32,000 bases of DNA from Candidatus Electrothrix yaqonensis (GCA_047651235.1 CP178758.1:2250001-2282000), one strand, 5' to 3'; shown: positions 1-23,142, counted from the first letter of the stretch. The notes: a model not told the origin generated them from the letters alone. Numbers and translations are program-made.

Positions 1-198
1 GGGTTGGAAGTGGCGATCAGCTGTCGACATGCCTATACGATGCTCGGTTCCCCGGAGGGAGAACTGGCCCTGTATCAGGCAATCGTGTATCTTGCCACGG
101 CACCGAGAAGCAATACCTTGCATAATGCCTTGTATGTAACGAAAAAAAAGGTTAAGAAAGAGGTACGGTGCTCACACATCGATACAACTGACCAATAA
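1..198 (+). CDS. rarA: RarA/MgsA-like recombination-associated AAA+ ATPase, C-terminal fragment (5' end off-window); looks 3'-truncated
   Basis: Frame-1 translation ...LGSPEGELALYQAIVYLATAPRSNTLHNAL... parallels the E. coli RarA motif [29 protein letters not shown]. The stop at 196-198 comes only ~25 codons later. No HLRNAPT-like continuation exists in any frame before the next gene at 231. Confidence 0.55.
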   Translation, partial: GLEVAISCRHAYTMLGSPEGELALYQAIVYLATAPRSNTLHNALYVTKKKVKKEVRCSHIDTTDQ

Positions 199-230: not shown

Positions 231-1811
231 ATGAAAATATACCGCACAAAAAAGATGTTGCTTCCCCTGCTCCTGCTGCTGACTGTGGTACCGTCATTGC
301 AAGCAAAGGAGTTCCTCCTGTTTTACGCCAATGATCAGCGTGGAGAGGTCGCCCCCTGCGGTTGAAAGCGTCGTCAGCTGGGCGGGCTGTCCAGAAAAGC
401 ATTACAGATAACACGACTTGCTGAACAGGAAAAACTGCCGTCACTGTTTCTTGACAGCGGCGCACTACTCTTTCCCGGAAAAAATTTGCAGGACAGAAAA
501 AAAGCAGCAGCAACGGTCAATGCCGAAGGTATTGTCACGGCTATGCAGGCCATGAACTGCCAGGCTGCGGGGATCTCCTCCTATGATCTGGCCGGAGGGA
601 TCGGTCTGCTTGAGGAACTGCAGGAGCAGGGTCGGGTGACCTGGTTATCCGGAAACCTAGTTGACAGCAAGAAAAAAGAACCTGTCTTTACACCGTCTCT
701 TTTCACGGAAGTCAACGGAATCAAAATCGCCATCCTGGGGATTACGGGCGAACAGGCAGGAGAGGCGACAGGAATCAAGGAAGCCGGATACACTATTCTG
801 CCCTGGCAGGAAACCCTGCCGAAAATGGCGGCAGCAGCAGGAAAAAAAGCCGATATGACGATTCTGCTGTCCAGTTATCCTTACCTGGTCAATAAAGAAA
901 TCGCCGAGTCTGTTGCCGGGGTTCACCTGATTCTTGCCTCCGGCCATGCCGTTTCTTCTTCCCATCCGTATCAAGCTGAAAATACGGTCATCGCGCAGAC
1001 CGGGGCACGCGGGAAATATCTCGGCATGATGCGAATCAACTGGACAGAAACGCAACAGTGGAGCGAAAATTTCTCCAGCCAGATCCAACAGGCCCGGAAG
1101 CAGCTGAAACAGGTTAACAGTCAGCTCGCGCGGCTGGAAAAACAAGGGGACAAGGATAAGCTGAAGAAAAATAAGCGCTATCAGAATATGCTGGCAAAAA
1201 AGAAGCAGATCAGCAAACAGATCAAAAAATTACAGGAGGACAAAGCTGCTGCGCCGGAATCGGAAACGCTCTGCAGCTTCAGCAACAAGTTTATCCCGCT
1301 GGAGACCTCGTTGCCGGAAGACCCGCAGGTGAAGAAAATAATTGATCAGACCATTCAGCAGGTGAATATGGTTAATCAGAAACATGCTCCGGTGGCTACG
1401 AAGCAGCCGACAGCCACCCTGCAGGATTTGGCTGGCTGGCAGGCCTGTCAGAAATGTCACCAGAAACAGGTGGAGTTCTGGCAGGGAACCAAACATGCAG
1501 CGGCGTGGTCCACCCTGGAGAAAAAGAACCAGCAGTTTAACGAAGAGTGTCTGATCTGTCACGTCACGCTGCCCTACTATGATGATGCACGGGTGAAAAG
1601 TGAAAACCTGCTCCTGATGTTGCCCGGCACCTTGAAAAATGTCGGCTGCGAAACCTGCCACGGCCCGGCAGCAGACCACAGCACCAAGCAGATGCCCATT
1701 CCTGTCCCTCATCCGGATGAGAAAGTATGCGCAGGATGCCATACGACAGAGCATGATGATAATTTTGTCTTTGCCGACAAGATGAAAAAAATACGCTGCC
1801 CGGAGAAATAA
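231..1811 (+). CDS. Exported UshA/metallophosphoesterase-like domain fused to a C-terminal tetraheme c-type cytochrome (c554-like); one in-frame TGA at 363-365 (candidate selenocysteine or nonsense lesion)
   Basis: ATG 231 encodes a signal peptide (MKIYRTKKMLLPLLLLLTVVPSLQA) in the same frame as track ORF 486..1811. The only interruption is TGA in GEVAPCG[TGA]KRRQLGGLSRK. UshA-like blocks are present (NDxxG, GGLxR, VNGIKIAILGIT, AQTGARGKYLG). There are four CxxCH motifs (CQKCH, CLICH, CETCH, CAGCH) and a K/Q-rich coiled-coil linker. Confidence 0.7.
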
Positions 1812-3649
1812 TGCACACAAAGATCGAGCATGTTACCCGCCGGATTATCGACCGCAGCCGGACAACCCGCACCGCCTACCTAGCGCGGATGGCGGCAGCC
1901 GGCGGCACGCAGAGCAATGGCCCGTTCCGTAAACGACTGCCGTGCAGCAACTTGGCCCATGATCTGGCCGGATGCCCTTCCTGCCGTCCGGCCCTGCTTG
2001 ATTCGGCAAAACCCAATATCGGGATTATCTCCGCCTATAACGATCTGCTTTCCGCTCACCAACCGCTGGGCCGTTATCCGGAGCTGATCAAAGAGACTGT
2101 GGCTGAAGCGGGCGGCACAGCCCAGTTTGCTGGCGGGGTTCCGGCCATGTGCGACGGCGTCACCCAGGGCGAGCCGGGCATGGATCTGAGCCTGATAAGC
2201 CGCGATGTGATTGCCATGGCCACGGTCATCGGGCTATCGCATAATGTTTTTGACGGCGCACTTCTGCTCGGTGTCTGCGACAAGATCATGCCCGGTCTGC
2301 TCATGGGCGGCCTGCAGTACGGTCATCTGCCCATGATTCTGGTTCCGGCAGGCCCCATGCCTTCCGGTATCGGCAATCAGGAAAAAAATAAGGTACGCGA
2401 ACGGTTCGCCAAAGGGGAAGTCGGACCGGAAGAGCTGCTGGACTCCGAGCTACGCGCCTACCACAGCCCCGGCACCTGCACCTTTTACGGCACAGCCAAC
2501 TCCAACCAGCTCATGACTGAGATACTTGGTGTGCATCTGCCCGGTGCCTCCTTTGTCAATGCAGATACCCCGCTGCGCGATGGCCTGACTAAGGCTGCAG
2601 CTCACCGGGTTGCGGCTGTCACCCACCTCGGCCCGGAGTATATTCCACTGGCTGAAGTGATCAGCGAAAAGGCCGTGCTCAACGCAATGGTCGGTCTGCT
2701 GGCCACGGGCGGCTCCACCAATGAGACCATGCACTTGGTGGCTATCGCCGGGGCAGCCGGGATCATGATTGACTGGGATGATTTTGCCGAACTGTCCGAA
2801 GCCGTGCCGCTCCTTGTCCGTATCTATCCCAACGGGGCCGGGGACATCAACTCCTTCCAGCAGGCAGGCGGCATGGCCCTGCTGATCCGCGAGCTGCTGG
2901 CTGGTGGTTTCCTGCATGAGGATGTGCAGACCGTGGCCGGGCCGGGACTGAGCAGGTATCTGGAACAGCCTGTTCTGGAGGGCGGAAAAGCTGTCTGGCA
3001 GCCGGGCCCGGAGCAGAGCAGTGATCCTGCTGTCATCGCCCCTTTGAACAAGCCTTTTGCCCCGGTCAGCGGCATCAAAGTACTGTCCGGCAATCTGGGT
3101 CGGGCAATCATGAAGATCTCTGCTCTGGCAGACGGTGAAAACACCTGCGTGGAAGCTCCGGCAATGGTTTTCAGCAGCCAGCAGGAGCTGAATCAGGCCT
3201 TCAAAAGTGGGCAGATGAACCGCGACCTGATCGCTGTCGTGCGCTTTCAGGGACCGCAGGCCAACGGGATGCCGGAGCTGCACAAACTGATCACCCCGCT
3301 GGCCATCCTGATGGAACAGGGCTACACAGTCGGGCTGGTCACGGACGGACGGCTCTCCGGGGCTTCAGGCAAGGTGCCCTTTGCCATCCACTGCACCCCG
3401 GAGGCCCTGACCGGCGGGCTGCTGGCCAAGGTGGAAGACGGCGATATCATCCGCATGGATGCCCGTACCAGTCGGCTGGAACTGCAGGTGGACGGGGCTG
3501 TGCTGGCAGAACGGCAGGCTGCGCTGCCACCGGCATACTCCGGTCCCGGAGAGCAGCTTTTTGCTCCGCTGCGGAGCCTGCTCACCGGAGCCGAACAGGG
3601 AGGCGGGGTTGCCGGTGCGGGAAATCTTTTCAAGGATAGCGGGAGGTAA
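1811..3649 (+). CDS. edd: Phosphogluconate dehydratase (Entner-Doudoroff dehydratase, IlvD/Edd family)
   Basis: The 612-aa product is collinear with E. coli Edd: VTRRIIDRSRTTRTAYLARM, ISAYNDLLSAHQP, GGVPAMCDGVTQG, GVCDKIMPGL, SPGTCTFYGTANSNQ. Its ATG overlaps the upstream stop (TAATG at 1809-1813). Confidence 0.9.
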   Translation: MHTKIEHVTRRIIDRSRTTRTAYLARMAAAGGTQSNGPFRKRLPCSNLAHDLAGCPSCRPALLDSAKPNIGIISAYNDLLSAHQPLGRYPELIKETVAEAGGTAQFAGGVPAMCDGVTQGEPGMDLSLISRDVIAMATVIGLSHNVFDGALLLGVCDKIMPGLLMGGLQYGHLPMILVPAGPMPSGIGNQEKNKVRERFAKGEVGPEELLDSELRAYHSPGTCTFYGTANSNQLMTEILGVHLPGASFVNADTPLRDGLTKAAAHRVAAVTHLGPEYIPLAEVISEKAVLNAMVGLLATGGSTNETMHLVAIAGAAGIMIDWDDFAELSEAVPLLVRIYPNGAGDINSFQQAGGMALLIRELLAGGFLHEDVQTVAGPGLSRYLEQPVLEGGKAVWQPGPEQSSDPAVIAPLNKPFAPVSGIKVLSGNLGRAIMKISALADGENTCVEAPAMVFSSQQELNQAFKSGQMNRDLIAVVRFQGPQANGMPELHKLITPLAILMEQGYTVGLVTDGRLSGASGKVPFAIHCTPEALTGGLLAKVEDGDIIRMDARTSRLELQVDGAVLAERQAALPPAYSGPGEQLFAPLRSLLTGAEQGGGVAGAGNLFKDSGR

Positions 3650-3719: not shown

Positions 3720-5726
3720 ATGAGCAGCGACAACGAGCCTTCCTCTAACCAGCCGACAGCGAAAGCAGCCTTGGATAAGCTCAAGGAATGGCAGGAGCTG
3801 GTCGGCTATATCGCTGCCGGGCTTACTGGTGTTCTCGGCACTTTTCTGAGTGGTGGTGCACTCCAGATTGCCAGCACGGCTCTTGCTGCGGTTGCTGTAG
3901 CTGCCGGAGGCTGGCAAGTACGACGTTCGCGGCGGCAAAAAAAACAACAGGCCGAGCAGGAACGGCTCTGGGAAGAACGGCGTCAGCAGCCGAGGGCGGC
4001 CTTCCGCAGTCTCTCTCCTTTTGAGGAACAAGACGAGCTGCCCGGCCAGGATCGTAAGCAGCAGGCCCGCTCCATTGCCGTACGGATCGTCAATGACGAC
4101 TTCCGCTTCGGCATTGTCTGCGGCGATTCCGGTGCAGGGAAAACCTCGCTGCTCCGCGCGGAGGTGATGCGCTACATCCGAAAAAACGGGTTGGAGCCGG
4201 TCTATCTCCGCAATCCCCGGCGGCTGCCCGGAGCTGCACCTGCAGATGCCTCAGTCTGCGAGCGGCTGTCGATAGAACTGGATGCTTTCGAGCAGGAGTC
4301 CATTCCCGCAGATGCCTGCGTCCTTCTCCTTGACCAGTTCGAGGAATGGTTTATTGCATACCGGGAGCCGGAGGCCCGTGCCCTGCTGGGCCGCTTCATC
4401 GCCCGGCTCACGCAGCGTGTCCCGCCGGTCAAGGTGGTTTGTGCGGTGCGGCGGGAATTTCTGATGGACTTTCATGATCTCTCCCCTGAACTTCCTGACC
4501 CTACCAATCCGAACAACACCTTCAGAATTCGCAACTTCACCGTTGCTCAAGCCATAGATGCAGTGCAGGAATGCGCAACAACGGACGGCATTGCTGCAGA
4601 GGAATCCTTTGCCGCCGCGTTGACTGCTGATCTGGAGGACAACGGCGAAGTGCGCCTGCCGGAACTGCAGATTGTTTGCACCCATCTTGCTGAAAGCGGC
4701 GGTCTTAGCAGCAGCCAATATCAGGCCGAAGGCGGCACTGCTGGCATTCTCGCCCATTACATCAAAAATGCGCTGGAATCCTGCCGCGAGCCGGAGATTG
4801 GCGCAAAACTGCTCCGCTCGCTCTGCGATTTCCCCACCCGGACCAAGAGACCGTCAAAAACTTTGGCCGAGCTGGTTGCCGATATCGGTGGAACAGCTGG
4901 CAGCAGGGCAATTGCCGCGCTGGTTCGCACCTTTGTTCTGGCCCGCCTGCTGATAGAGGAAAAAAGAACGGGCAGCCCGGATACCTACGCTCTGATACAC
5001 GATTATCTGGTCGGTGCGGTGGAACTGGCTACCGGCGATGTCTCCACCAAGACAGAAGAGGCGAATCAGTTGCTGCGCTATTATCTGGCCCAGCAGAGCG
5101 GAGTTATTCCGCTGCGCAGACTGCGTTTTATCCGGGCGCATGCGGACAGGCCGTTGCTGAGGCAGCCGAATGCCCGGCGGTTATTCCGCAAGAGTCTGAT
5201 TGCGCCAGCTTTGGTTTCAGGAGCGATGGTGTTTGTGGCGGTGCTTATGGCAGGCGGGTTGTATTTGGCGGCGACTGCTCAGATTCAGTGGCGGTCTAAA
5301 ATTATTGGGCGGCATTGGGATGAGGATGAAGCCGGAGCAGTTAATTACGAAATTTTGTCTGAGAAGGGACAGGTAGTCAGCGGAACTGGTTGGTCACGGA
5401 CAAAAAAAATCAGGCTTTGGGATGCAAAAAATGGGAAGATATTTACCAGTAATGACAAACTGAAAAATTCGGCGGCAACCGTCAGCTCAAATGTTAGTTA
5501 TAGTGGCACGTTGCTTCTTTTGAAAGGACTTTCTCGTCAAGGAAAACAGCTATGCACTTTAATTAACCTTGATAATGGAGAAAAGACAGAACTGCTTGCA
5601 GGTCGTGCAAGTAGTGGCTGTGAATTCTCAGAATCAGAGCAACATATTAACTTAATTTTAGAAGATAAAAATGACGACTTATTCACTGTCGCCCTTTGGT
5701 CAGTTAACACAAGAAAAAGTTCTTAG
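3720..5726 (+). CDS. Membrane-anchored STAND-type (nSTAND/NACHT-like) P-loop NTPase: N-terminal TM hairpin, NTPase plus helical domain, third TM helix, start of a WD40-like propeller
   Basis: Hydrophobic stretch LVGYIAAGLTGVLGTFLSGGALQIASTALAAVAVAAGGW (nt ~3798-3914) is followed by RRSRRQKK. Pre-P-loop motif FRSLSPFEEQDE. Walker A GDSGAGKTS (4122-4148). Walker B VLLLDQFEEW (4320-4349). RREFLMDF and LPELQIVCTHL blocks are typical of STAND NTPases fused to WD40. TM helix LIAPALVSGAMVFVAVLMAGGLYLAATA (5196-5279). WD-like KKIRLWDAKNGK and FTVALWSV follow. Confidence 0.75.
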   Translation: MSSDNEPSSNQPTAKAALDKLKEWQELVGYIAAGLTGVLGTFLSGGALQIASTALAAVAVAAGGWQVRRSRRQKKQQAEQERLWEERRQQPRAAFRSLSPFEEQDELPGQDRKQQARSIAVRIVNDDFRFGIVCGDSGAGKTSLLRAEVMRYIRKNGLEPVYLRNPRRLPGAAPADASVCERLSIELDAFEQESIPADACVLLLDQFEEWFIAYREPEARALLGRFIARLTQRVPPVKVVCAVRREFLMDFHDLSPELPDPTNPNNTFRIRNFTVAQAIDAVQECATTDGIAAEESFAAALTADLEDNGEVRLPELQIVCTHLAESGGLSSSQYQAEGGTAGILAHYIKNALESCREPEIGAKLLRSLCDFPTRTKRPSKTLAELVADIGGTAGSRAIAALVRTFVLARLLIEEKRTGSPDTYALIHDYLVGAVELATGDVSTKTEEANQLLRYYLAQQSGVIPLRRLRFIRAHADRPLLRQPNARRLFRKSLIAPALVSGAMVFVAVLMAGGLYLAATAQIQWRSKIIGRHWDEDEAGAVNYEILSEKGQVVSGTGWSRTKKIRLWDAKNGKIFTSNDKLKNSAATVSSNVSYSGTLLLLKGLSRQGKQLCTLINLDNGEKTELLAGRASSGCEFSESEQHINLILEDKNDDLFTVALWSVNTRKSS

Positions 5727-6669
5727 AGAAATTCCTTACATTATAAATGGTTACCCTGGTTATAATTCCACTGCATTTCAATTCAGTGCTGATGGTGATA
5801 GGGTTATTGCATCTGTACGTGAAAACAACAGAGAATTACTTGCACTTTATAACGCTATTTCCGATGAAAAAATTAATTATCTTACAGATAATGATAAAGA
5901 AGGAATCAATTTCGAGTTGAACAGCCTGACGAAAATAGTTTGCACGCTATCTGAGACACAGGATGGCAATAATATGCTTCAGCTATGGAATCTTAATGAC
6001 GGCTCTCTTATAAAAGAAAGAAAGATTCCTTCAAATTATATTGAAAGAATTACCAAAGACGGCAAGTTTATTCTTCTTCACTCAAAAATAGGCAACAGCT
6101 ATATTGATATAATCACAACTTCTAACTTGGAACCAGTCCAAGACGTAGACTTTGGCACCATGCGGTTAAGCAACGCAACTTCGCAACAATCTGACCCAAC
6201 TGTTTATTGGAAAGATGGAAAAGATGTTAAACTTTGGCACGTTGGTAAAGAAGACCCGATCTTGCTGCAACATATAAAGCTCGGCGATAAAGATAAAGTA
6301 GTATCCAGTGACGACCTGCAGCGGGCTTTCATCTGGGGGCCGCATCGTCTAGTTGAGCTGTGGGATGTAAAAAAGAAAAAGCGGTTGCGCCTGCTGACTT
6401 CCCGTCAGGATAAATACATCCAGTCTGTTCAGTTTACCATGAATGACACGGCGGTGGTAATTACCGAAGAAGGTGGTGTCGCCTCGCTTTTCGACGCCAA
6501 AGACGGTAGCCCGCTGGCGCAGCATATTCCCGGTGCTTCGGTTTATTACTACGACCCCGACCTGCGGCGTATTCATCTTTGGAACAGCTTCGGGCAGGTC
6601 ATCCGTTACGTTGAAGGCCGCAGCTATTTCGGACATTTTGTCCCGACAAAGAAAGGTGCGTTGCAGTAA
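5671..6669 (+). CDS. WD40-like beta-propeller repeats; most likely the frameshifted continuation of 3720..5726 rather than an independent gene
   Basis: Degenerate WD signatures: LQLWNLNDGSL, VKLWHVGKED, VELWDVKKKKRL, IHLWNSFGQ, FSADGDRVIAS. It overlaps the upstream ORF by 56 nt in the +1 frame. No convincing SD precedes ATG 5671. Confidence 0.6.
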   Translation: MTTYSLSPFGQLTQEKVLREIPYIINGYPGYNSTAFQFSADGDRVIASVRENNRELLALYNAISDEKINYLTDNDKEGINFELNSLTKIVCTLSETQDGNNMLQLWNLNDGSLIKERKIPSNYIERITKDGKFILLHSKIGNSYIDIITTSNLEPVQDVDFGTMRLSNATSQQSDPTVYWKDGKDVKLWHVGKEDPILLQHIKLGDKDKVVSSDDLQRAFIWGPHRLVELWDVKKKKRLRLLTSRQDKYIQSVQFTMNDTAVVITEEGGVASLFDAKDGSPLAQHIPGASVYYYDPDLRRIHLWNSFGQVIRYVEGRSYFGHFVPTKKGALQ

Positions 6670-15680: not shown

Positions 15681-18068
15681 ATGGAAGAATCTCAGCAGAG
15701 GGACAACGGGACCGATGTCTCCTTTCCGGTAGTCGGCATCGGGGCATCGGCCGGAGGGCTGGCTGCCTTGGAAGCGTTTTTCAGCGCTATGCCGCCGGAC
15801 AGCGGTATGGCTTTTGTTGTGGTCCAGCATATCTCTCCCGATTTCAAAAGCCTGATGGATGATCTGCCGGCTCGACATACCGCTATGCCGAGCCACCGCG
15901 TGGAAAACGGAATTATCTTAAAGGCAAATGCAATCTACCTGATTCCGCCGAAATGCGTCATGACCATGGCCGAGGGCTGCCTGTATCTGCAGGAGCGCGT
16001 TACCCAGCACATAGTTCTGCCGGTGGATATTTTTTTTGAGTCCCTGGCCGCAGCAGCAGGGCCGCAGGCCGTCGGAATCATCCTCTCCGGCACCGGTTCC
16101 GACGGCTCGCGGGAAATTCAGGCAATTCATGAGGCGGGTGGACTGGTTCTGGCGCAGACCGTGGAATCGGCGCAGTTTGACGGGATGCCGAGAGCAGCGG
16201 TCTGCACGGGTATATGCGATTACGTCATCACACCGACTGAAATGCCGGGCCTGCTGCTTGACAATCTGGAACTCCTGCCTGAAGAAAAAACACACTCCTG
16301 TTATTATCATGTCCCGCTGATTCCGTCCCGGCCTTCTGCACCTCCGTCAATATCTGCGTCAGTATCCACCCCTGAACCGGCAGTTTTTCTGAATGACCGG
16401 CGGAGTGTCCAAACATTACAGCACCATATTGCGGAGCTGGAGCTGGAACTGCAGACGACCAAAGAGAATCTGCAGGCTACAGTTGAGGAACTGCAGACCA
16501 GTAATGAAGAGCTGCAGGCTACCAACGAAGAACTGCTGGCTTCCAATGAGGACCTCTATACCGTCAATGCGAAGTTTGAACGGAAAAATAATGAACTGCA
16601 GGCCCTGAACCGGGAACATCAGCATCTGCTGGACAGTCTGCTCAGCGGCGTTGTGGTGTATGACCGGAACGCAGGTATTCTGCTGAGCAATCCTGAAGCC
16701 CGCCGTATTTTAGGACTTCCGAAAGAAGAGACTCTGTGGAAATATACCGGTGACACGAACTGGCATTTTACCGACGCACAAGGAGAGAGCCTGCCGGAAG
16801 AAGCCTGCCCGGTAACCCGTATTTTAGGAAGACACGAGACAGTGTCCAATGAGCTGCTTGGGATCAGAAAATCGGACTGCCGTGATGACTTCCATGATAT
16901 CACTTGGGTGTATCTGCACGGCATACCTGTCCGGGGGGATGACGGAGAGACGGACAAGGTGATTATTAATTTTGTTGATGTCACGGATCTGCAGCAGGCA
17001 AAAGAGGCCCTGCATGAAAAGACCGCCCTGCTCAACATGTCGCAGCATATCGGCCTGCTGGGCAGCTGGGTCCTTGATGTCCCGGGTGACCGTCTGGAAT
17101 GGTCGGACGAGACCTACCGTATTTTCGGCTTGGAACCGCAGGAATTCAAGGCCAGTTATGCGGCTTTTCTGGAAAGAGTGCATCCGGAAGACCGCAGCAT
17201 GGTGAACCGGGCGTATACAGATTCCATTCAGCAGGGCGCGGACCGCTATGAAATCGAACACCGCATCATCCGTCTGCACGATAAAGCGGTACGTTTTGTC
17301 CATGAAAAATGCCGGCATCTGCGGGATGCTTCCGGCGGGATTGTCCGTTCGGTGGGCATTGTCCAGGATATTACGGAACGGAAACAGACTGCCCAGGCCC
17401 TGCGGCAGGCCAAGGAAACCGCTGAGCAGGCCAGTCATGCCAAGACCATATTTCTCGCCAATATGAGCCATGAACTGCGAACCCCGCTGAACGGCCTTCT
17501 TGGCTCTGTTCAGGTGCTCAGGCAGAAGCCGAAGTCGGATCAGGAATTCCGGGAAGGACTGGACATTATTGAACAGAGCGGAACCCGCCTGCTGATGCTC
17601 ATCAACGACCTTTTCGATTTTACGGAGCGCAATACCGGGAAGCCTCCTGAGGCGCCGGGACAGGCAGGAGAGATGGAAGAAATAGAGGAGATGGAAGATA
17701 TCAGTCTGCCGGACGGCAGATGGACAGGCAGCCCGGAAGTGCAGGTTCCGCACAGTGCTGTACTGCCATCCCCTGCCTCCTCTGAACCCATTGTTCCGCC
17801 CCCGGCTTCTGATCTGCAGGCCCTGCTGGAGGCAGCGTCCCTCGGCATGATGCATGCAATCCGCAGGCAGGCGTTTCTCCTGGAAGAACAAGATTCCCGA
17901 TACAGCCCGTTTGTCCGCCGTCTGGTGGAGCTTGCAGATACATTTGAAGAAAAGCCGCTGCTGGATTTTCTTAGAAGATATCTGGGCCCGGACAGGCAGA
18001 CAGATAAACAGAGAGCAATGAACAATGAAAGAGAATACACATGCGCCGCCACGGATTCTGATTATTGA
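15681..18068 (+). CDS. CheB-methylesterase-domain / coiled-coil / 2x PAS / HisKA(DHp) protein with no CheR domain and no HATPase_c domain; carries the same C-terminal module as the upstream kinase
   Basis: CheB-type block [20 protein letters not shown]...VVVQH...LSGTGSDG, with Ser/His/Asp positions present. Heptad stretch [29 protein letters not shown] is typical of CheB/CheR-PAS fusions. Two PAS domains. H-box [16 protein letters not shown] (His codon 17469-17471). After the DHp there is only an acidic/Pro-rich linker, then the module at 17787-17987. Confidence 0.8.
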
Positions 18069-19698
18069 TGATAACAAAATTAATCTGACGGTTCTGACAG
18101 ATTATCTGGAAGGAAGTCATATTCAGACCATGACCGCGCTCAACGGCATGAACGGCCTGGAAAAAGCCCGGCGCGGTCAGCCTGACCTGATTCTTCTTGA
18201 TGTCATGATGCCGGATATGGACGGCTTTGCAACCTGCCGCCGCCTGAAAGCTGACCCGCTGACTGCGGATATCCCGGTAATTTTTGTTACAGCCCTGCAC
18301 AGTGTAGAGGATAAGGTCACCGGATTCAATGCAGGCGGGGTGGATTATCTGACCAAACCTTTCCAGATGGAGGAGGTCCGCGCCAGGGTGTTGACCCATA
18401 TCCGGCTGAGCCGGGCAAAGAAACAGCTGCACCGGGAAATCGCCGAACGGAAACGGGCTGAAGAGGAACTCCGGCAGGCAAAAGAGGCGGCAGAATCCGC
18501 CACCCGGACGAAATCCGCCTTTCTCGCCAATATGAGCCATGAGATCCGGACGCCCATGAATGTGATCATCGGCATGAACAGACTGATCCGGGAAACCGAA
18601 CTGACCCCGCAGCAGCGGGAATATGCCGAGATGGTGTGCCATTCTTCAGAAATCCTGTTGTCGCTTATTGAAGATATTCTAGATTTTTCCAAAATCGAAG
18701 CCGGAAGACTCGATCTGGAATCTGTTGATTTTGATATCAGAGAGCTGGTCACCGGAACAGCCGGAATGCTGGAGATGAAGGCAGCCGAAAAAGGGCTTTC
18801 CCTGTCCTGCCGGATTGCGGAGAATGTTCCCTGCTTTCTCAAAGGCGACCCCACCCGCCTCCGCCAGGTGATCATGAATCTGGTCAATAATGCGGTCAAA
18901 TTTACAGAACAGGGAGAAATCAGCATTGAGGTTTTTCTGGAGCAGGAAACAGATCAGCAGGTCACGCTTGGTTTTTCGGTTGCAGATACCGGCATCGGTA
19001 TTCCTGCTGACCGGCTCAGGGATCTGTTCAAACCGTTTTCCCAGGTTGATGCATCCACAACCCGGAAATACGGAGGAACGGGGCTTGGGCTTGTGATTTC
19101 GTCCGCTATCATCGGTATGATGGACGGCAGCATCAGCGTGGAGAGCGAACCCGGAAAAGGATCGACTTTTTCCTGTACAGCCTGTTTTGACAAAGCAGAG
19201 CCGGAGCCGGAAGAAACAGCGGGTCCATCGGATTTATCGGATGAATCGGTTGCCGGGAAAAAGGAGGGAGACTGTGCTGCAGTCCTTGCCGGTCTTCGAG
19301 TTCTGCTGGCTGAAGACAACCTGTTCAATCAGAAGCTGGCTCAGATTATTCTGGAAAAATCCGAAATACGGGTGGAAACCGCTGTCAACGGCAAAGAAGC
19401 GGTTGAAGCTGTGCGCAAAGGCAGGTATGATTTTGTCCTGATGGACGTGCAGATGCCGGTCATGGACGGCCTGGAGGCCGCAAGAACACTCCGGAAAGAA
19501 CAGATCCGGATTCCCATTATTGCCCTGACGGCGAACGCAACCGCAAAAGACCGGTCCGACTGCTTAGATGCCGGAATGGATGACTATATTTCCAAGCCGG
19601 TTGATGAAGAAAAACTGCAGGATGTCATCTGCAGGCAGATGAACAGGCAGGGGGCGTGCAGAACACTCGGTCGGGAAAAAACTGTACAGATTTTTTGA
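18025..19698 (+). CDS. Hybrid two-component protein: REC, coiled coil, HisKA, HATPase_c, REC
   Basis: [12 protein letters not shown]...[14 protein letters not shown]...TKPF (REC). [14 protein letters not shown] (H-box). [27 protein letters not shown] (ATPase). [12 protein letters not shown]...[14 protein letters not shown]...SKPV (second REC). It overlaps the upstream stop by 44 nt. Confidence 0.85.
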
Positions 19699-19816
19699 AA
19701 CATGGTATGAAATGTGGTAGAAATAATATTGAGTCCTGATCTGTTGGGTGCACTATTTGACTGCGGGAAACGCTCAGTAACCGTGTTCTTCAGAAATTTT
19801 TGACCGGGGGATGCAG

Positions 19817-19835
19817 CAGGAATCCTGTTTTTTTT
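19817..19835 (+). terminator. Weak candidate intrinsic terminator downstream of the hybrid kinase
   Basis: CAGG-aat-CCTG (extendable with A-T and G-T pairs) is followed by T8 (19828-19835). The stem is short. Confidence 0.3.
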
Positions 19836-19923
19836 CCTGAGAACCAGCCGGGATAAAAGAAAAAAATAATTTTCTGCTGAAGATAAAATAAAAAAAATTT
19901 TACAACGCGCAAAAAAATCGTTA

Positions 19924-19932
19924 TGGTATAAG
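19924..19932 (+). promoter_or_regulatory. Candidate extended -10 promoter element (TGgTATAAG) for the small secreted-protein gene
   Basis: TG at 19924-19925 and TATAAG at 19927-19932, ~48 nt upstream of ATG 19980, in an A/T-tract-rich region. SD AAAGGAGGAAG follows. No good -35 element. Confidence 0.35.
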
Positions 19933-19979
19933 AGAAAGCTGTTGGGTACTTTTTAATCTCATTAAAAGGAGGAAGAAAA

Positions 19980-20318
19980 ATGTTGCAAAAGGCTAAAATA
20001 GGCGCAATTGCTCTGATCGCTTCTGCTGCCATCATCGGCTCCGCACAGGCTCAGTCTATCACCATTCCCGTGCCAACAAGCGATCCGTCAATCGGAGGCG
20101 TCGTAACAGGGGTCAGAGGTGAAATGCCGGTAAGGGAGATCATGAACACCAAGCGGGCTCAGGTGATCGTTGAACAGGCCGGGAAAATGCCCTTGCTAGA
20201 TCAGGTTATGGTCCAGATGATGGACATGATGAAAAACAGGATAATGCAGACCCAGATGGATGCACTGAAGAATCCGGATGGCGGCATTCCCGGAGCAATT
20301 GCACCTCCTATGTTCTAA
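19980..20318 (+). CDS. Small secreted Met-rich protein, unknown family (paralogue 1)
   Basis: Signal peptide MLQKAKIGAIALIASAAIIGSAQA. The mature 88 aa contain 11 Met (QVMVQMMDMMKNRIMQTQMD). Strong SD. Shares the N-terminal IPxPTxDPxI..VV motif and the C-terminal NPD..P..IAPxF motif with 20562..20942. Confidence 0.65.
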   Translation: MLQKAKIGAIALIASAAIIGSAQAQSITIPVPTSDPSIGGVVTGVRGEMPVREIMNTKRAQVIVEQAGKMPLLDQVMVQMMDMMKNRIMQTQMDALKNPDGGIPGAIAPPMF

Positions 20319-20561
20319 CCGGAAAACTGTTGTTTTGGAGGAAGACGTGTTGTCTTACCGGCTTCCTCCGGAGTTGCTGCAGGTTTGTATTCCACTGGAG
20401 AGGGCTTTTCCGGCCCTCATCAATCTGCCTCTCTTTTATATTTTTCGGACTGATGAGGAAAAAAGAACTGGCAGTTTTTTGTTGAAGAAAAGGGATAGTT
20501 AGATTTTTTATCCCGGTGAACAATGAAAATCCGCATAATATATACTCAAGAGAGGTGTGAT

Positions 20562-20942
20562 ATGTTTCTCTCATTAAAAGCATCTGTCAGCTTCGTGTTG
20601 TTTTTCGTTCTGGCGACCTTTGTATCCGCTGCACAGGCAGAAACTATGGATATTCCTCTTCCGACCGAGGATCCGGCTATCCAGAATGTTGTGGGATCAG
20701 TCAAGACCGGCGTTGATGTTAAAAGTGTCATGGTGGAGATACGGGACAGAATTAAAGCACAGCAGGTAAAAGGGGCGCCCTTGATGCGCCTTGTAGGTGA
20801 CGGAATAAGTGAAGTGGTCAGTGCCCGGGTACGGGAAGTGACCCGTACCGAGACCAGAAAAGCGCAGATGGCTTCGATGATGGACCCGAACAATCCGGAT
20901 GCTGTACCGGATATGATAGCGCCGAAGTTTGAGTTTGAGTAA
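20562..20942 (+). CDS. Small secreted protein, unknown family (paralogue 2)
   Basis: Start moved to ATG 20562 (GAGAGG SD 6 nt upstream). Signal peptide MFLSLKASVSFVLFFVLATFVSAAQA. Motifs MDIPLPTEDPAIQNVVGSV and NPDAVPDMIAPKFEFE are shared with paralogue 1. A strong terminator follows. Confidence 0.65.
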   Translation: MFLSLKASVSFVLFFVLATFVSAAQAETMDIPLPTEDPAIQNVVGSVKTGVDVKSVMVEIRDRIKAQQVKGAPLMRLVGDGISEVVSARVREVTRTETRKAQMASMMDPNNPDAVPDMIAPKFEFE

Positions 20943-20978
20943 TACGACTGGCTGCAACCAGCGCCAAAAATAGATAAA

Positions 20979-21016
20979 ACTCCCGTAGCTGAATCAGCTG
21001 CGGGAGTTTTTTTATT
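20979..21016 (+). terminator. Rho-independent terminator
   Basis: 13-bp stem ACTCCCGTAGCTG / CAGCTGCGGGAGT (one G-T pair), loop AAT, then TTTTTTATT. Confidence 0.85.
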
Positions 21017-21150
21017 GTATCATAAAGAAGATCGAGCTGGACGAGTTAAAAAATATTGATATACTGCCAACCGGAATAAACTGCGCTTTTGAAAAACAGA
21101 TTACCTTCATCACCAAAACAAAAGATATATCCCTGCTCGGAGAAATACAG

Positions 21151-21185
21151 CCCTTTGGACAAGAAAAGGCGTTTTGTCCAAAGGG
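21151..21185. terminator. Perfect 12-bp inverted repeat (CCCTTTGGACAA-11 nt-TTGTCCAAAGGG), possible terminator for the convergent csp gene
   Basis: Read directly. It lies ~60 nt downstream of the csp stop on the minus strand. The U-tract is poor on either strand. Confidence 0.35.
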
Positions 21186-21247
21186 TAGAATTCCCCGCTT
21201 TTCCTTTTTTTTACGGACGAAGGGCAATCCTATACTAGGATAGGGGA

Positions 21248-21448
21248 TTACAGGGCAACAACATTATCCGCCGCCGGCCCCTTAGGCCCGTCAACGATAT
21301 CAAAACTTACCCGTTGACCTTCCTGCAGACTCTTGTACCCTTGGGATTGAATAGCTGAGTGATGAACAAAAACATCCTCACCGCCATCCTGCTCAATAAA
21401 TCCAAACCCCTTAGAATCGTTAAACCACTTTACGGTTCCTTCTGCCAT
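21248..21448 (-). CDS. cspA: Cold-shock protein (CspA family, 66 aa)
   Basis: [34 protein letters not shown] contains the RNP1/RNP2 motifs KGFGFI and VFVHH. Confidence 0.95.
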
Positions 21449-21682
21449 TTTCTCATACTCCTGTATAGCTTGATTTCTCTATGAAATCTTTATGTAAATA
21501 CGGATTACACCTTTTGAAATCCGTTGTGCAGACCAACCCATGCGGCCTGCGGGTTCTTTTCTTTATTTTGCGGAAAGCCTAGGATGACCTCAGGCTTTCC
21601 CCGGTTTCCTGGACGTTCAGTTTTGTTTTCGTCGGAGAGCAGCACCGCTATTTCTTATGAATGAAGTGAGCTCGCGGTAGGC

Positions 21683-21949
21683 TTATCGATGACGATATTT
21701 TTTTTTCTTCGTCGGTTTAGACTCGTTGCAGACAAGGTCACGGTGCTTATATCTTTTTCCGTTCAGATCTTCCATAGCCTTATGGCCTTCGCTTCTGGTC
21801 GCCATTTCCACAAAAGCAAAACCTTTTGGTCGGCCTGTAAATTGATCCTTGATGAGATTTGTGCTGACAACACTCCCGTACTGGCCGAACATGTCGGTTA
21901 ATTCATTTTCAGTAGTATTATGGGGAAGACTGCCGATAAAAAGTTTCAT
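21683..21949 (-). CDS. RRM-type (RNP-1) RNA-binding protein, 88 aa
   Basis: MKLFIGSLPHNTTENELTDMFGQYG...KGFAFVEM carries RNP2 LFIGSL and RNP1 KGFAFVEM. Start moved to the MKL codon preceded by AGGAGAAG. Confidence 0.85.
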   Translation of the reverse strand: MKLFIGSLPHNTTENELTDMFGQYGSVVSTNLIKDQFTGRPKGFAFVEMATRSEGHKAMEDLNGKRYKHRDLVCNESKPTKKKKYRHR

Positions 21950-22419
21950 ACTGCTTCTCCTGAAAAGATGTATCTCGTCTAAAACCAACAAGTAGTTAGT
22001 GTATGTAAAGAAGGTTACGAGAGAGTAAGTACGTATTGCGCGATACATACAAAAGCCATCAAAGATAGTTAAAGCAGAAACTTTAAGAGCACCAAAGGTT
22101 GGACTGGATTCACCATGACGACGGTGAAGCGGCGTAAAGAAAAGAAAATGCTAAAAAATATCAATTTATAGTTAAACAAGATAATACTCTTATTGTTATT
22201 AATTGCAATAAATAAATTCAGGAAAACAGTTTATGATCAACTTTACGAGGTAATTCCGGTACCGGTTTAGTTTTGTTTTTTTGCAGAAACAAATTGTTAG
22301 TCTTGGGCAAACTTGTTCCCGCTTTAAAGATCGGGTACACTTCACTTACAGATCCTTGCTGCATTACCGCAGCATCTCTCCTCCTTCCACCTACGAACCG
22401 GATTATCTAACTCTTCGAT

Positions 22420-22449
22420 ATCCTGCCAAATGAGAGCGGGCGGCAGGAT
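22420..22449. other. 8-bp inverted repeat ATCCTGCC-14 nt-GGCAGGAT abutting the stop codon of the minus-strand membrane-protein gene
   Basis: Read directly. The T-rich tail (tgtttattcattttt) is on the plus strand only, so the terminator assignment is ambiguous. Confidence 0.3.
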
Positions 22450-22452
22450 TGT

Positions 22453-22977
22453 TTATTCATTTTTGGCCTTGTTTTCGGGGTCACTGGAGGAGTCGCGTTT
22501 TTTGTTTGAACCGGTTGCTTTACCTGTGGTTGTTTTAATGAGAGAGGGAACAAAGCGTTCACTGAATCCGGCGATAAAGGACCAGAAAAGCAGCTTGCCC
22601 ATGCTGATACTGCTGTCCGGAAGTGTATACTGGAACCAATCGCGGATGCTCTTTTTTAAAGCTGCATGAGAATCTGGGTCGAATTTAACTTCATAGAAAT
22701 CAGGGAACAGTTCTCCTTGTACTAAACCGGAAAGAAACATCAGCATTAGCACAACAGCAAATATTCCTCCGTTAATGGATATTATTAACATAGAGGACCA
22801 TGAGTTTGATAAGAGTTTCAGTTCATCATATGTCATAGAAGGGAGACGCTGCTGGATACTGACAAAACCGCCGATCAGTCCTATCATAAATACAATGAGA
22901 ACTAAAAATCCGTCTTTTACCGATTCCTCTCCTGTCTCATAGGCTCGAGTAAAAAGGAGAATCACCAGAATCATCAC
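22453..22977 (-). CDS. AT-rich hypothetical membrane protein (about 4 TM); N-terminus unresolved
   Basis: Hydrophobic segments ILVILLF, FLVLIVFMIGLIGGFV, MLIISINGGIFAVVLMLMFLSGLV, LLFWSFIAGF. The frame stays open upstream to 23085 and encodes RRKYLQIVTKKLIIFTLIP. A strong in-frame SD-like AAGGAGGA lies at 23063-23070 (minus strand) but has no ATG/GTG/TTG nearby. Confidence 0.5.
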   Translation of the reverse strand: MMILVILLFTRAYETGEESVKDGFLVLIVFMIGLIGGFVSIQQRLPSMTYDELKLLSNSWSSMLIISINGGIFAVVLMLMFLSGLVQGELFPDFYEVKFDPDSHAALKKSIRDWFQYTLPDSSISMGKLLFWSFIAGFSERFVPSLIKTTTGKATGSNKKRDSSSDPENKAKNE

Positions 22978-23142
22978 CGGAATTAGAGTGAATATAATCA
23001 GTTTTTTGGTAACTATTTGTAGGTATTTACGCCGTTCACTATGTTGATTATTGTTCGTCTTATCCTCCTTTATTATTTCATTATTTTACTCCTTTTTAGA
23101 TTCTATCATAAAAGGATAATGAATACCAAGAGAAAATATTTT

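Follow-up and report, generated by a model that had tools for sequence, protein, structure and literature searches.

The locus at positions 231 to 1,811 of the window, a 32,000-nucleotide stretch of DNA from Candidatus Electrothrix yaqonensis (GCA_047651235.1, CP178758.1:2250001-2282000), raises the question of whether an in-frame TGA between an export signal and a tetraheme cytochrome body is a stop or a codon for selenocysteine (Sec), and what protein is made if it is read through. Positions 231-1811 form a single frame of 526 codons with exactly one internal stop, TGA 363-365; ATG 231 and the TGA share the frame of ORF 486..1811. Gene callers give two pieces, a 44-aa ORF (231-365) and a 441-aa ORF (486-1811). 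The readthrough product begins with MKIYRTKKMLLPLLLLLTVVPSLQA, followed by KEFLLFYANDQRGEVAPCG-[TGA]-KRRQLGGLSRK..., and the residues on either side of the internal stop are FLLFYANDQRGEVAPCG-[TGA]-KRRQLGGLSRKALQ. The leader MKIYRTKKMLLPLLLLLTVVPSLQA contains neither a twin-arginine motif nor a lipobox, and from its sequence is predicted to be cleaved after LQA, at a length of 25 residues. The product that would start at TTG 486 (MQDRKKAAATVNAEG..., read MQDRKKAAATV...) has no hydrophobic leader. Attachment of c-type hemes requires export. The preliminary description of this DNA had placed a signal peptide at ATG 231, in frame with ORF 486..1811 and separated from it by a single TGA, and the coordinates and the translation agree with this; its statement that the ORF has four CxxCH motifs and a start of its own that lacks a signal peptide is confirmed from the translation. 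The features of the locus are listed in Table 1.

Table 1. Features of the UshA-like PCGU locus, in window coordinates.
Feature	Position	Strand	Basis or remark
Full CDS, UshA-like PCGU (seleno)protein precursor	231..1811	+	526 aa, predicted Sec at residue 45, TAA stop 1809-1811; NF041198 match, alignment to Cys homologues continuous across the TGA
Sec-type signal peptide MKIYRTKKMLLPLLLLLTVVPSLQA (predicted)	231..305	+	n/h/c layout by inspection; homologues have equivalent leaders
UshA/5'-nucleotidase/SoxB-like metallophosphatase-fold domain	306..1070	+	approx. residues 26-280; sub-threshold SoxB/UshA matches, alignment to 3ivd and other 5'-nucleotidases, model of homologue P0004
Degenerate metallophosphatase motif I, then family signature, N-D-Q-R-G-E-V-A-P-C-G-U	330..365	+	Cys43 = 357-359, Sec45 = TGA 363-365
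UGA read as selenocysteine (predicted)	363..365	+	TGA or Cys codon at this column in relatives; TGA otherwise a normal stop in the window
SECIS-like hairpin	378..394	+	stem CUGGGC 378-383 / GUCCAG 389-394, apical loop GGGCU 384-388; overlaps the L-G-G-L-S-R codons
Lys/Gln-rich helical linker	1071..1260	+	approx. residues 281-343; helices H287-311 and H322-343 of the P0004 model cover the equivalent region
C-terminal tetraheme cytochrome c554-like module	1443..1742	+	PF13435 Cytochrome_C554 (4.2e-13), PF14522; PDB 6i5b, cytochrome c554 1bvb
CxxCH motifs	1446-1460, 1548-1562, 1647-1661, 1728-1742	+	readthrough translation

The column of TGA 363-365 was followed in relatives at the DNA level, mostly by a scan of genome contigs, for which the best match has 41% identity among the matches listed. 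It is occupied by TGA in at least 12 other loci and by TGY (Cys) in at least 31, and by TAA or TAG in none of the 44 loci (window included) among the matches listed. Coding sequence is conserved on both sides of the column in TGA and TGY loci. The question put in the preliminary description, whether orthologues have Cys or TGA here, is thereby answered: among the matches listed it is one or the other, at the exact column. TGA is found in MAGs of Desulfobulbaceae, Desulfobulbia and Desulfopila (L001-L005, of which L002 is labelled only Deltaproteobacteria), in two further Desulfobulbaceae loci (L083, L084), in the complete genome of Ca. Electrothrix aestuarii (L082, CP159373.1), in Cognaticolwellia (L006), in an Enterobacterales-labelled MAG (L013), in Myxococcota (L014) and in Oligoflexia (L016). 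The TGT/TGC loci belong to Myxococcota, Planctomycetota, Verrucomicrobiota and other phyla, and the close relatives Ca. Electronema have Cys forms. The spread of the Sec form thus takes in Desulfobulbia, some Gammaproteobacteria, Myxococcota and Oligoflexia, and the family is widespread.

The motif PCG[U/C] is kept in 44 loci of many phyla among the matches listed, the sole deviation being ACG in L001, and P-C-G-[U/C] followed by GG[LIMV] is, among the matches listed, the most conserved feature superfamily-wide. Full-length Cys homologues, which make up 10 of the best 120 database homologues, read ...EPCGC[KRS]..Q.GG[LM][SA]R.... The gene calls of 110 of the best 120 begin downstream of the Sec column, 36 of these at (M/L)GGLS.. 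directly after it, most plausibly because gene callers stop at the TGA. The window gene keeps all family-invariant residues and shows no disruption besides the TGA.

Every one of the 13 TGA forms has a hairpin downstream of the UGA, invariably spaced by 12 nt and built of a 6-bp stem that is closed by a 5-nt loop, GGNCU. Five or six of the six stem pairs are formed in each of the 13, and all six in the window. In the codon-anchored register the mean is 5.9 of 6 pairs for Sec forms (n = 10) vs 2.45 of 6 for Cys forms (n = 31), with a Mann-Whitney p of 1.9e-6 that overstates independence, since the Sec forms are phylogenetically related; three further TGA forms stand outside this test. A single Cys form of the 31 is fully paired in the hairpin register. 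In the alignment of 13 sequences 97.4% of the stem cells pair, vs 26-56% when the 3' partners are slid, and RNAalifold returns the same helix (378-383/389-394) independently. Double compensatory changes occur in two stem pairs (C-G to U-A in L003, U-A to G-C in L016) and a stem G.U is changed to G-C in L013 and L014; the covariation is modest, as three of the six stem pairs never vary. The L-G-G-L-S-R codons form the hairpin, so that Sec forms fix both the peptide and the synonymous sites and Cys forms vary both; because of this overlap with the conserved LGGLSR motif, part of the hairpin conservation is protein-driven. The window codons CTG GGC GGG CTG TCC AGA are the choice specific to Sec forms and are absent from Cys forms.

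Taken singly, the window hairpin (-8.6 kcal/mol) is thermodynamically unremarkable (z = -1.66 over 21 nt, z = 0.07 when 38 nt are folded). When 355-440 and 363-400 were folded as single sequences, the minimum-energy structure was not the conserved hairpin and did not surpass shuffled sequences; the element was resolved by comparative analysis only. The preliminary description had judged the stem too weak to call, which is right for one sequence. It had drawn the hairpin as CAGC (375-378) with GCTG (386-389); this complementarity exists, in a register 3 nt off the conserved helix. As a functional element CAGC/GCTG (375-389) was rejected, since slid partners pair at the low rates given above and RNAalifold picks 378-383/389-394. 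Rfam models, run over the whole window at the gathering threshold and over 300-500 with E ≤ 10, gave no SECIS or other RNA family apart from a chance match to mir-499 (E = 8.4) in the search of 300-500. Curated models cover bacterial SECIS elements poorly, so the missing Rfam match is no argument against Sec.

A point of comparison is the SECIS of Escherichia coli fdhF; the sequence used for the register comparison has a 100% match in the fdhF gene of 5,419 E. coli genomes. In both genes the hairpin follows directly on the UGA, within the coding sequence. The loop GGNC of the window corresponds to GGUC of fdhF at the same positions (nt 22-25 from the U of UGA), and most orthologues of the window gene carry the loop hexamer GGUCUG as fdhF does. 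G23 and U24 are important for SelB binding. However, the third loop base (position 24) is G in the window, not the U contacted by E. coli SelB; it is also G in L004, and A in L082. The spacer is 12 nt in the window family vs 11 nt in fdhF. The window stem is a perfect 6-bp helix with a 5-nt loop and without the bulged U17 of the fdhF type, and the extended lower helix is not conserved in the window family.

The readthrough protein, with U entered as C, scores 593.3 bits (E = 3.7e-178) against the NCBIfam model NF041198.1 (UshA_like_PCGU, "UshA-like (seleno)protein"), for which the curated cut-off is 275 bits. The match is one stretch across the TGA, from residue 13 to 514 and from profile position 9 to 518 of 519. 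As expected of a family member, a P-C-G-U motif stands shortly after the ND.xG block and is followed by ..Q.GGLSR, a c554-like module with four CxxCH motifs forms the C-terminus, and an export signal, recognized by inspection, is present at the N-terminus. With NF041198 the window gene shares the full-length architecture, the position of Sec and the hairpin downstream of it; it departs from the family in NDQRG, in GEVAPCG for the consensus GE.EPCG, and in the G at the third loop base. A second family, NF049981 (UshA-like (seleno)protein family 2), likewise has a Cys/Sec pair close to the N-terminus of a UshA-like scaffold, but its motif is CxxU, not CxU. The window protein lies outside it (35.7 bits vs a cut-off of 140), and the family would be without a cytochrome module, since its HMM has only 262 positions. 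The nearest database proteins belong to cable bacteria (Ca. Electrothrix, Ca. Electronema) and Desulfobulbaceae, and the best match, self excluded, is 59% identical.

On these comparisons TGA 363-365 is almost certainly a selenocysteine codon, and the gene at 231-1811 very probably encodes an exported member of the curated selenoprotein family NF041198, with the UGA recoded via the hairpin. The C-G-U selenoprotein reading advanced in the preliminary description is supported in three respects, by the TGA-or-Cys column in orthologues, by the hairpin conserved only in TGA forms and by the survey listings. Its statement that UshA-like selenoproteins had been listed in such surveys proved correct: UshA-like selenoproteins with a CxU motif appear in selenoproteome surveys of 2008, 2022 and 2026 (PMC2398784, PMC9312934, PMC13188914). 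The first of these reports "COG0737, UshA-like", motif CxU, with 76 Sec sequences in the GOS metagenome (PMC2398784), and the second has the entry "UshA-like protein", CxU (PMC9312934). WP_013162925.1 and WP_263046620.1 are cited in reviews as family members. The selenoprotein family is already catalogued and is named automatically by the NCBI pipeline, and the locus is not new. The literature searched yielded no functional characterisation of any member of the NF041198 type, and a search for literature linking cable bacteria or Electrothrix with selenocysteine gave nothing useful.

Pfam recognizes only the cytochrome c554/c7-type module in the readthrough protein. The heme Cys and His residues of this module are invariant in alignments A1 and A3. 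Over the linker (1071..1260) the Pfam search gave only spurious coiled-coil-type matches, and PF02872 (5_nucleotid_C) had no Pfam match, the C-terminus being filled by the cytochrome domains. The SoxB profile TIGR04486 scored 53.7 bits vs a cut-off of 550. An AlphaFold model was made for the Cys homologue P0004, which is 53% identical (mean pLDDT 81, pTM 0.76). With this model Foldseek puts 5'-nucleotidases and SoxB at the top of its PDB matches (E about 1e-13 to 1e-15), and the N-domain of the homologue, some 250 residues, has the calcineurin-like fold. The sole low-confidence segment of the modelled N-domain is the CG[C/U] loop (pLDDT < 50).

With UshA, 5'-nucleotidase and SoxB (COG0737; 1USH, 3IVD, 2WDC) the window protein has in common the N-domain fold, the periplasmic location and GG(L/W) after motif I. 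It differs from them in the loss of most metal ligands and in the tetraheme module that replaces 5_nucleotid_C. The dimetal ligand set (DxH, GD, GNH[E/D], H, GHxH) is incomplete, and family-wide only the motif I Asp and the motif III His are kept. In the alignment to 3ivd, motif II GD is changed to SG[A/G], the motif IV His falls in a deletion and motif V GHxH is not conserved; for GNHE the family consensus has AHD and the window SYD. The motif I His alternates with Arg across the family and is Arg in the window (NDQRG). The preliminary description had remarked on NDQRG as a replacement of canonical His and as a sign of a repurposed domain; the His is indeed replaced in the window, but ND-x-[H/R]-G is ordinary variation in the family, the His being retained in many members. 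By this pattern of residues the metallophosphatase catalytic apparatus is largely lost.

The following course of events is proposed. The UGA at 363-365 would be read as selenocysteine by SelB.GTP.Sec-tRNA(Sec), SelB being recruited by the mRNA hairpin 378-394. The 526-aa precursor would be exported via the Sec pathway, with removal of the 25-residue leader, and four c-type hemes would be attached in the periplasm. The mature protein would consist of an N-domain with the metallophosphatase fold and a dismantled dimetal site, joined by the helical linker to the tetraheme c554-like module. A flexible loop after motif I would bear P-C-G-(U/C), seemingly the only invariant feature superfamily-wide, and Cys43-x-Sec45 would be redox-active, a selenenylsulfide/selenol centre in electron exchange with the four hemes, which would make the protein a periplasmic oxidoreductase. 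A redox centre wired to the hemes had been suggested in the preliminary description, and is a proposal here as well.

Another use of the same two residues deserves weight, and is possible though on balance doubtful: the protein would be a true selenoprotein in which Cys43 and Sec45 bind a metal or cofactor in place of the lost dimetal centre, with no redox couple between them. FdhA and [NiFeSe] hydrogenase offer the analogy, Sec being a ligand to metal in both. The motif lies right after motif I, where the metal site of UshA and SoxB is found, the motif I Asp and the motif III His are retained, and conserved acidic residues precede the motif (GE.E/DPCG). The low confidence of the loop in the P0004 model, which is free of ligand, is also consistent with a ligating role. 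However, the second of the acidic residues is replaced, by Ala in the window and by Gln in L082, and the alternation of the motif I His with Arg likewise argues against metal binding. Among Cys-x(1-2)-Sec selenoproteins found by computation, the majority are thiol-oxidoreductase-like, although the same survey puts UshA-like among the exceptions without a recognized redox motif (PMC2398784).

The surroundings of the gene bear on whether a selenoprotein is made at all. No selA, selB, selD or tRNA-Sec is found within the 32-kb window, which contains no tRNA and 20 annotated ORFs. This, together with the split made by the gene callers, would agree with a pseudogene inactivated by a nonsense codon, in which working Sec machinery is lacking, translation terminates after 44 residues and the cytochrome body is either not made or not exported. 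Such an outcome is very unlikely: the same codon, TGA, recurs in at least 12 other loci of several phyla, with no TAA or TAG among the matches listed, the window hairpin is intact with six of six pairs, and the 1.58 kb of the gene hold no second lesion, the family-invariant residues and the four heme motifs all being kept. Of the 16 Pfam-supported genes of the window, 9 are terminated by TGA in the ordinary way, so that recoding would be local and site-specific; global reassignment of TGA was rejected on the same count. The rarA/mgsA gene upstream is conserved in Desulfobulbia relatives, and the downstream genes differ. In the window the downstream neighbour is an edd/ilvD-family dehydratase with a TAATG overlap, which is not common to the relatives. 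In a distant Sec clade the gene follows an ABC-2/GldG-like/DUF4340 operon. Gene context does not help with function.

A sequencing or assembly error, by which the true codon would be TGC or TGT and the gene a Cys-form member, could be suspected from the Cys forms of close relatives such as Ca. Electronema. It is hardly credible, as the window carries the Sec-form hairpin codons that Cys forms lack, and as a separate Logan assembly of run SRR31704081 (L081, a 7.5-kb contig) matches the window at 100% over 7,379 nt with the identical TGA, though this contig may derive from the same reads as the window. The last reading, two products formed by termination at the TGA and an internal start (TTG 486 or another), that is, a 44-aa secreted peptide and a cytochrome, agrees with the mechanical ORF structure but is extremely improbable, since the 120 nt from the TGA to 486 encode the conserved KRRQLGGLSRKALQI..LPSLFLDSGALLF in frame and homologous to the Cys forms, and since a protein begun at 486 would have no signal peptide, yet would need periplasmic heme attachment.

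For the selenoprotein read through at the UGA, we infer that C43-x-U45 is the active centre, either as a selenenylsulfide couple or as a metal/cofactor ligand pair, and that it is electronically linked to the periplasmic hemes. A sulfur or other chalcogen compound may be its substrate, a guess prompted by the SoxB-like scaffold and the Desulfobulbia host. A broader proposal can be framed, and is unlikely to hold: the P-C-G-U loop on a metal-stripped scaffold with a tetraheme module would represent a class of periplasmic selenoenzymes that couples sulfur or selenium substrate chemistry to heme electron transfer, in cable-bacteria relatives might feed a periplasmic electron relay, and might have its Sec form (marine Ca. 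Electrothrix, this organism) or Cys form (Ca. Electronema) according to habitat.

The fragments 231-365 and 486-1811 are best annotated as a single selenoprotein gene, whose presence points indirectly to Sec decoding in this uncultured Desulfobulbia-like organism. The window adds one more diverged Sec member to a known family of striking architecture and opens no new question; the interest that remains is in the biochemistry of the family, and not in the locus itself.

Public protein sets seem to carry a systematic annotation error for the UshA-like PCGU family: of the 120 best-matching database proteins, 110 are missing the motif-bearing N-terminal part, and 36 of these 110 begin at (M/L)GGLS.., just past the Sec codon. 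For some of the short homologues, however, truncation at a contig end may be the cause. A distant Sec-containing clade with the motif PCG-TGA-PK..P.GGL is represented in Cognaticolwellia (L006), an Enterobacterales-labelled MAG (L013) and Myxococcota (L014). In all three loci the Sec gene lies immediately downstream of a four-gene operon, which in Cognaticolwellia encodes an ABC ATPase, an ABC-2 permease, an ABC_transp_aux/DUF4350 (GldG-like) protein and a DUF4340 protein.

The UshA-like gene of the window is directly preceded by rarA/mgsA (RuvB_N, AAA, MgsA_C), as it is in three Desulfobulbia relatives, Ca. Electrothrix aestuarii (L082) and two Desulfobulbaceae (L083 and L084). The gene order thus seems to be conserved, although nothing obvious connects the two genes in function. 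Downstream, the stop codon TAA (1809-1811) shares bases with the ATG of an ILVD/EDD-family dehydratase gene (TAATG), and this overlap suggests that the two genes are translationally coupled. The dehydratase neighbor is not conserved in the same relatives, which have lptC or a DHH phosphoesterase gene on the opposite strand.

Elsewhere in the window, an nSTAND1 NTPase gene overlaps a WD40/beta-propeller gene, forming a STAND-plus-propeller pair (3720-6669). Two HisKA-bearing ORFs overlap in different frames at 15681-19698; a frameshift or an uncommon kind of gene split could account for this, or the two may just be neighboring sensor kinases. The following stretch of about 3.4 kb (19700-23140) holds short ORFs only (20523-20942, 21683-22048 and 22453-22977). 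The Pfam scan gave zero matches for the first and last of these, and Rfam and tRNA searches found nothing within the stretch.

Features of the window and of homologous loci
Feature	Sequence	Position	Remark
rarA/mgsA	window	4-198	directly upstream of UshA-like gene
rarA/mgsA	L082	4381-5739	directly upstream of UshA-like gene
rarA/mgsA	L083	4506-5852	directly upstream of UshA-like gene
rarA/mgsA	L084	4506-5849	directly upstream of UshA-like gene
ILVD/EDD-family dehydratase	window	1811-3649	next gene after selenoprotein gene
nSTAND1 NTPase	window	3720-5726	
WD40/beta-propeller	window	5671-6669	
CheB-methylesterase/PAS/HisKA ORF	window	15681-18068	without HATPase domain
ORF with HisKA, HATPase, two receiver domains	window	18025-19698	other frame
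Four-gene operon ahead of distant-clade Sec gene	L006	1452-6004	
Four-gene operon ahead of distant-clade Sec gene	L013	1192-5902	matched by ORF layout only
Four-gene operon ahead of distant-clade Sec gene	L014	1185-5994	fourth gene also confirmed

Among the homologues found, the named full-length Cys forms (P0017 and P0048) belong to Ca. Electronema, which comprises freshwater or low-salinity cable bacteria. Ca. Electrothrix, a marine group, is represented by truncated gene calls, and its single locus checked at the DNA level (L082) carries TGA. Cable bacteria may switch between Sec and Cys forms according to habitat, a pattern behind which stand few genomes.
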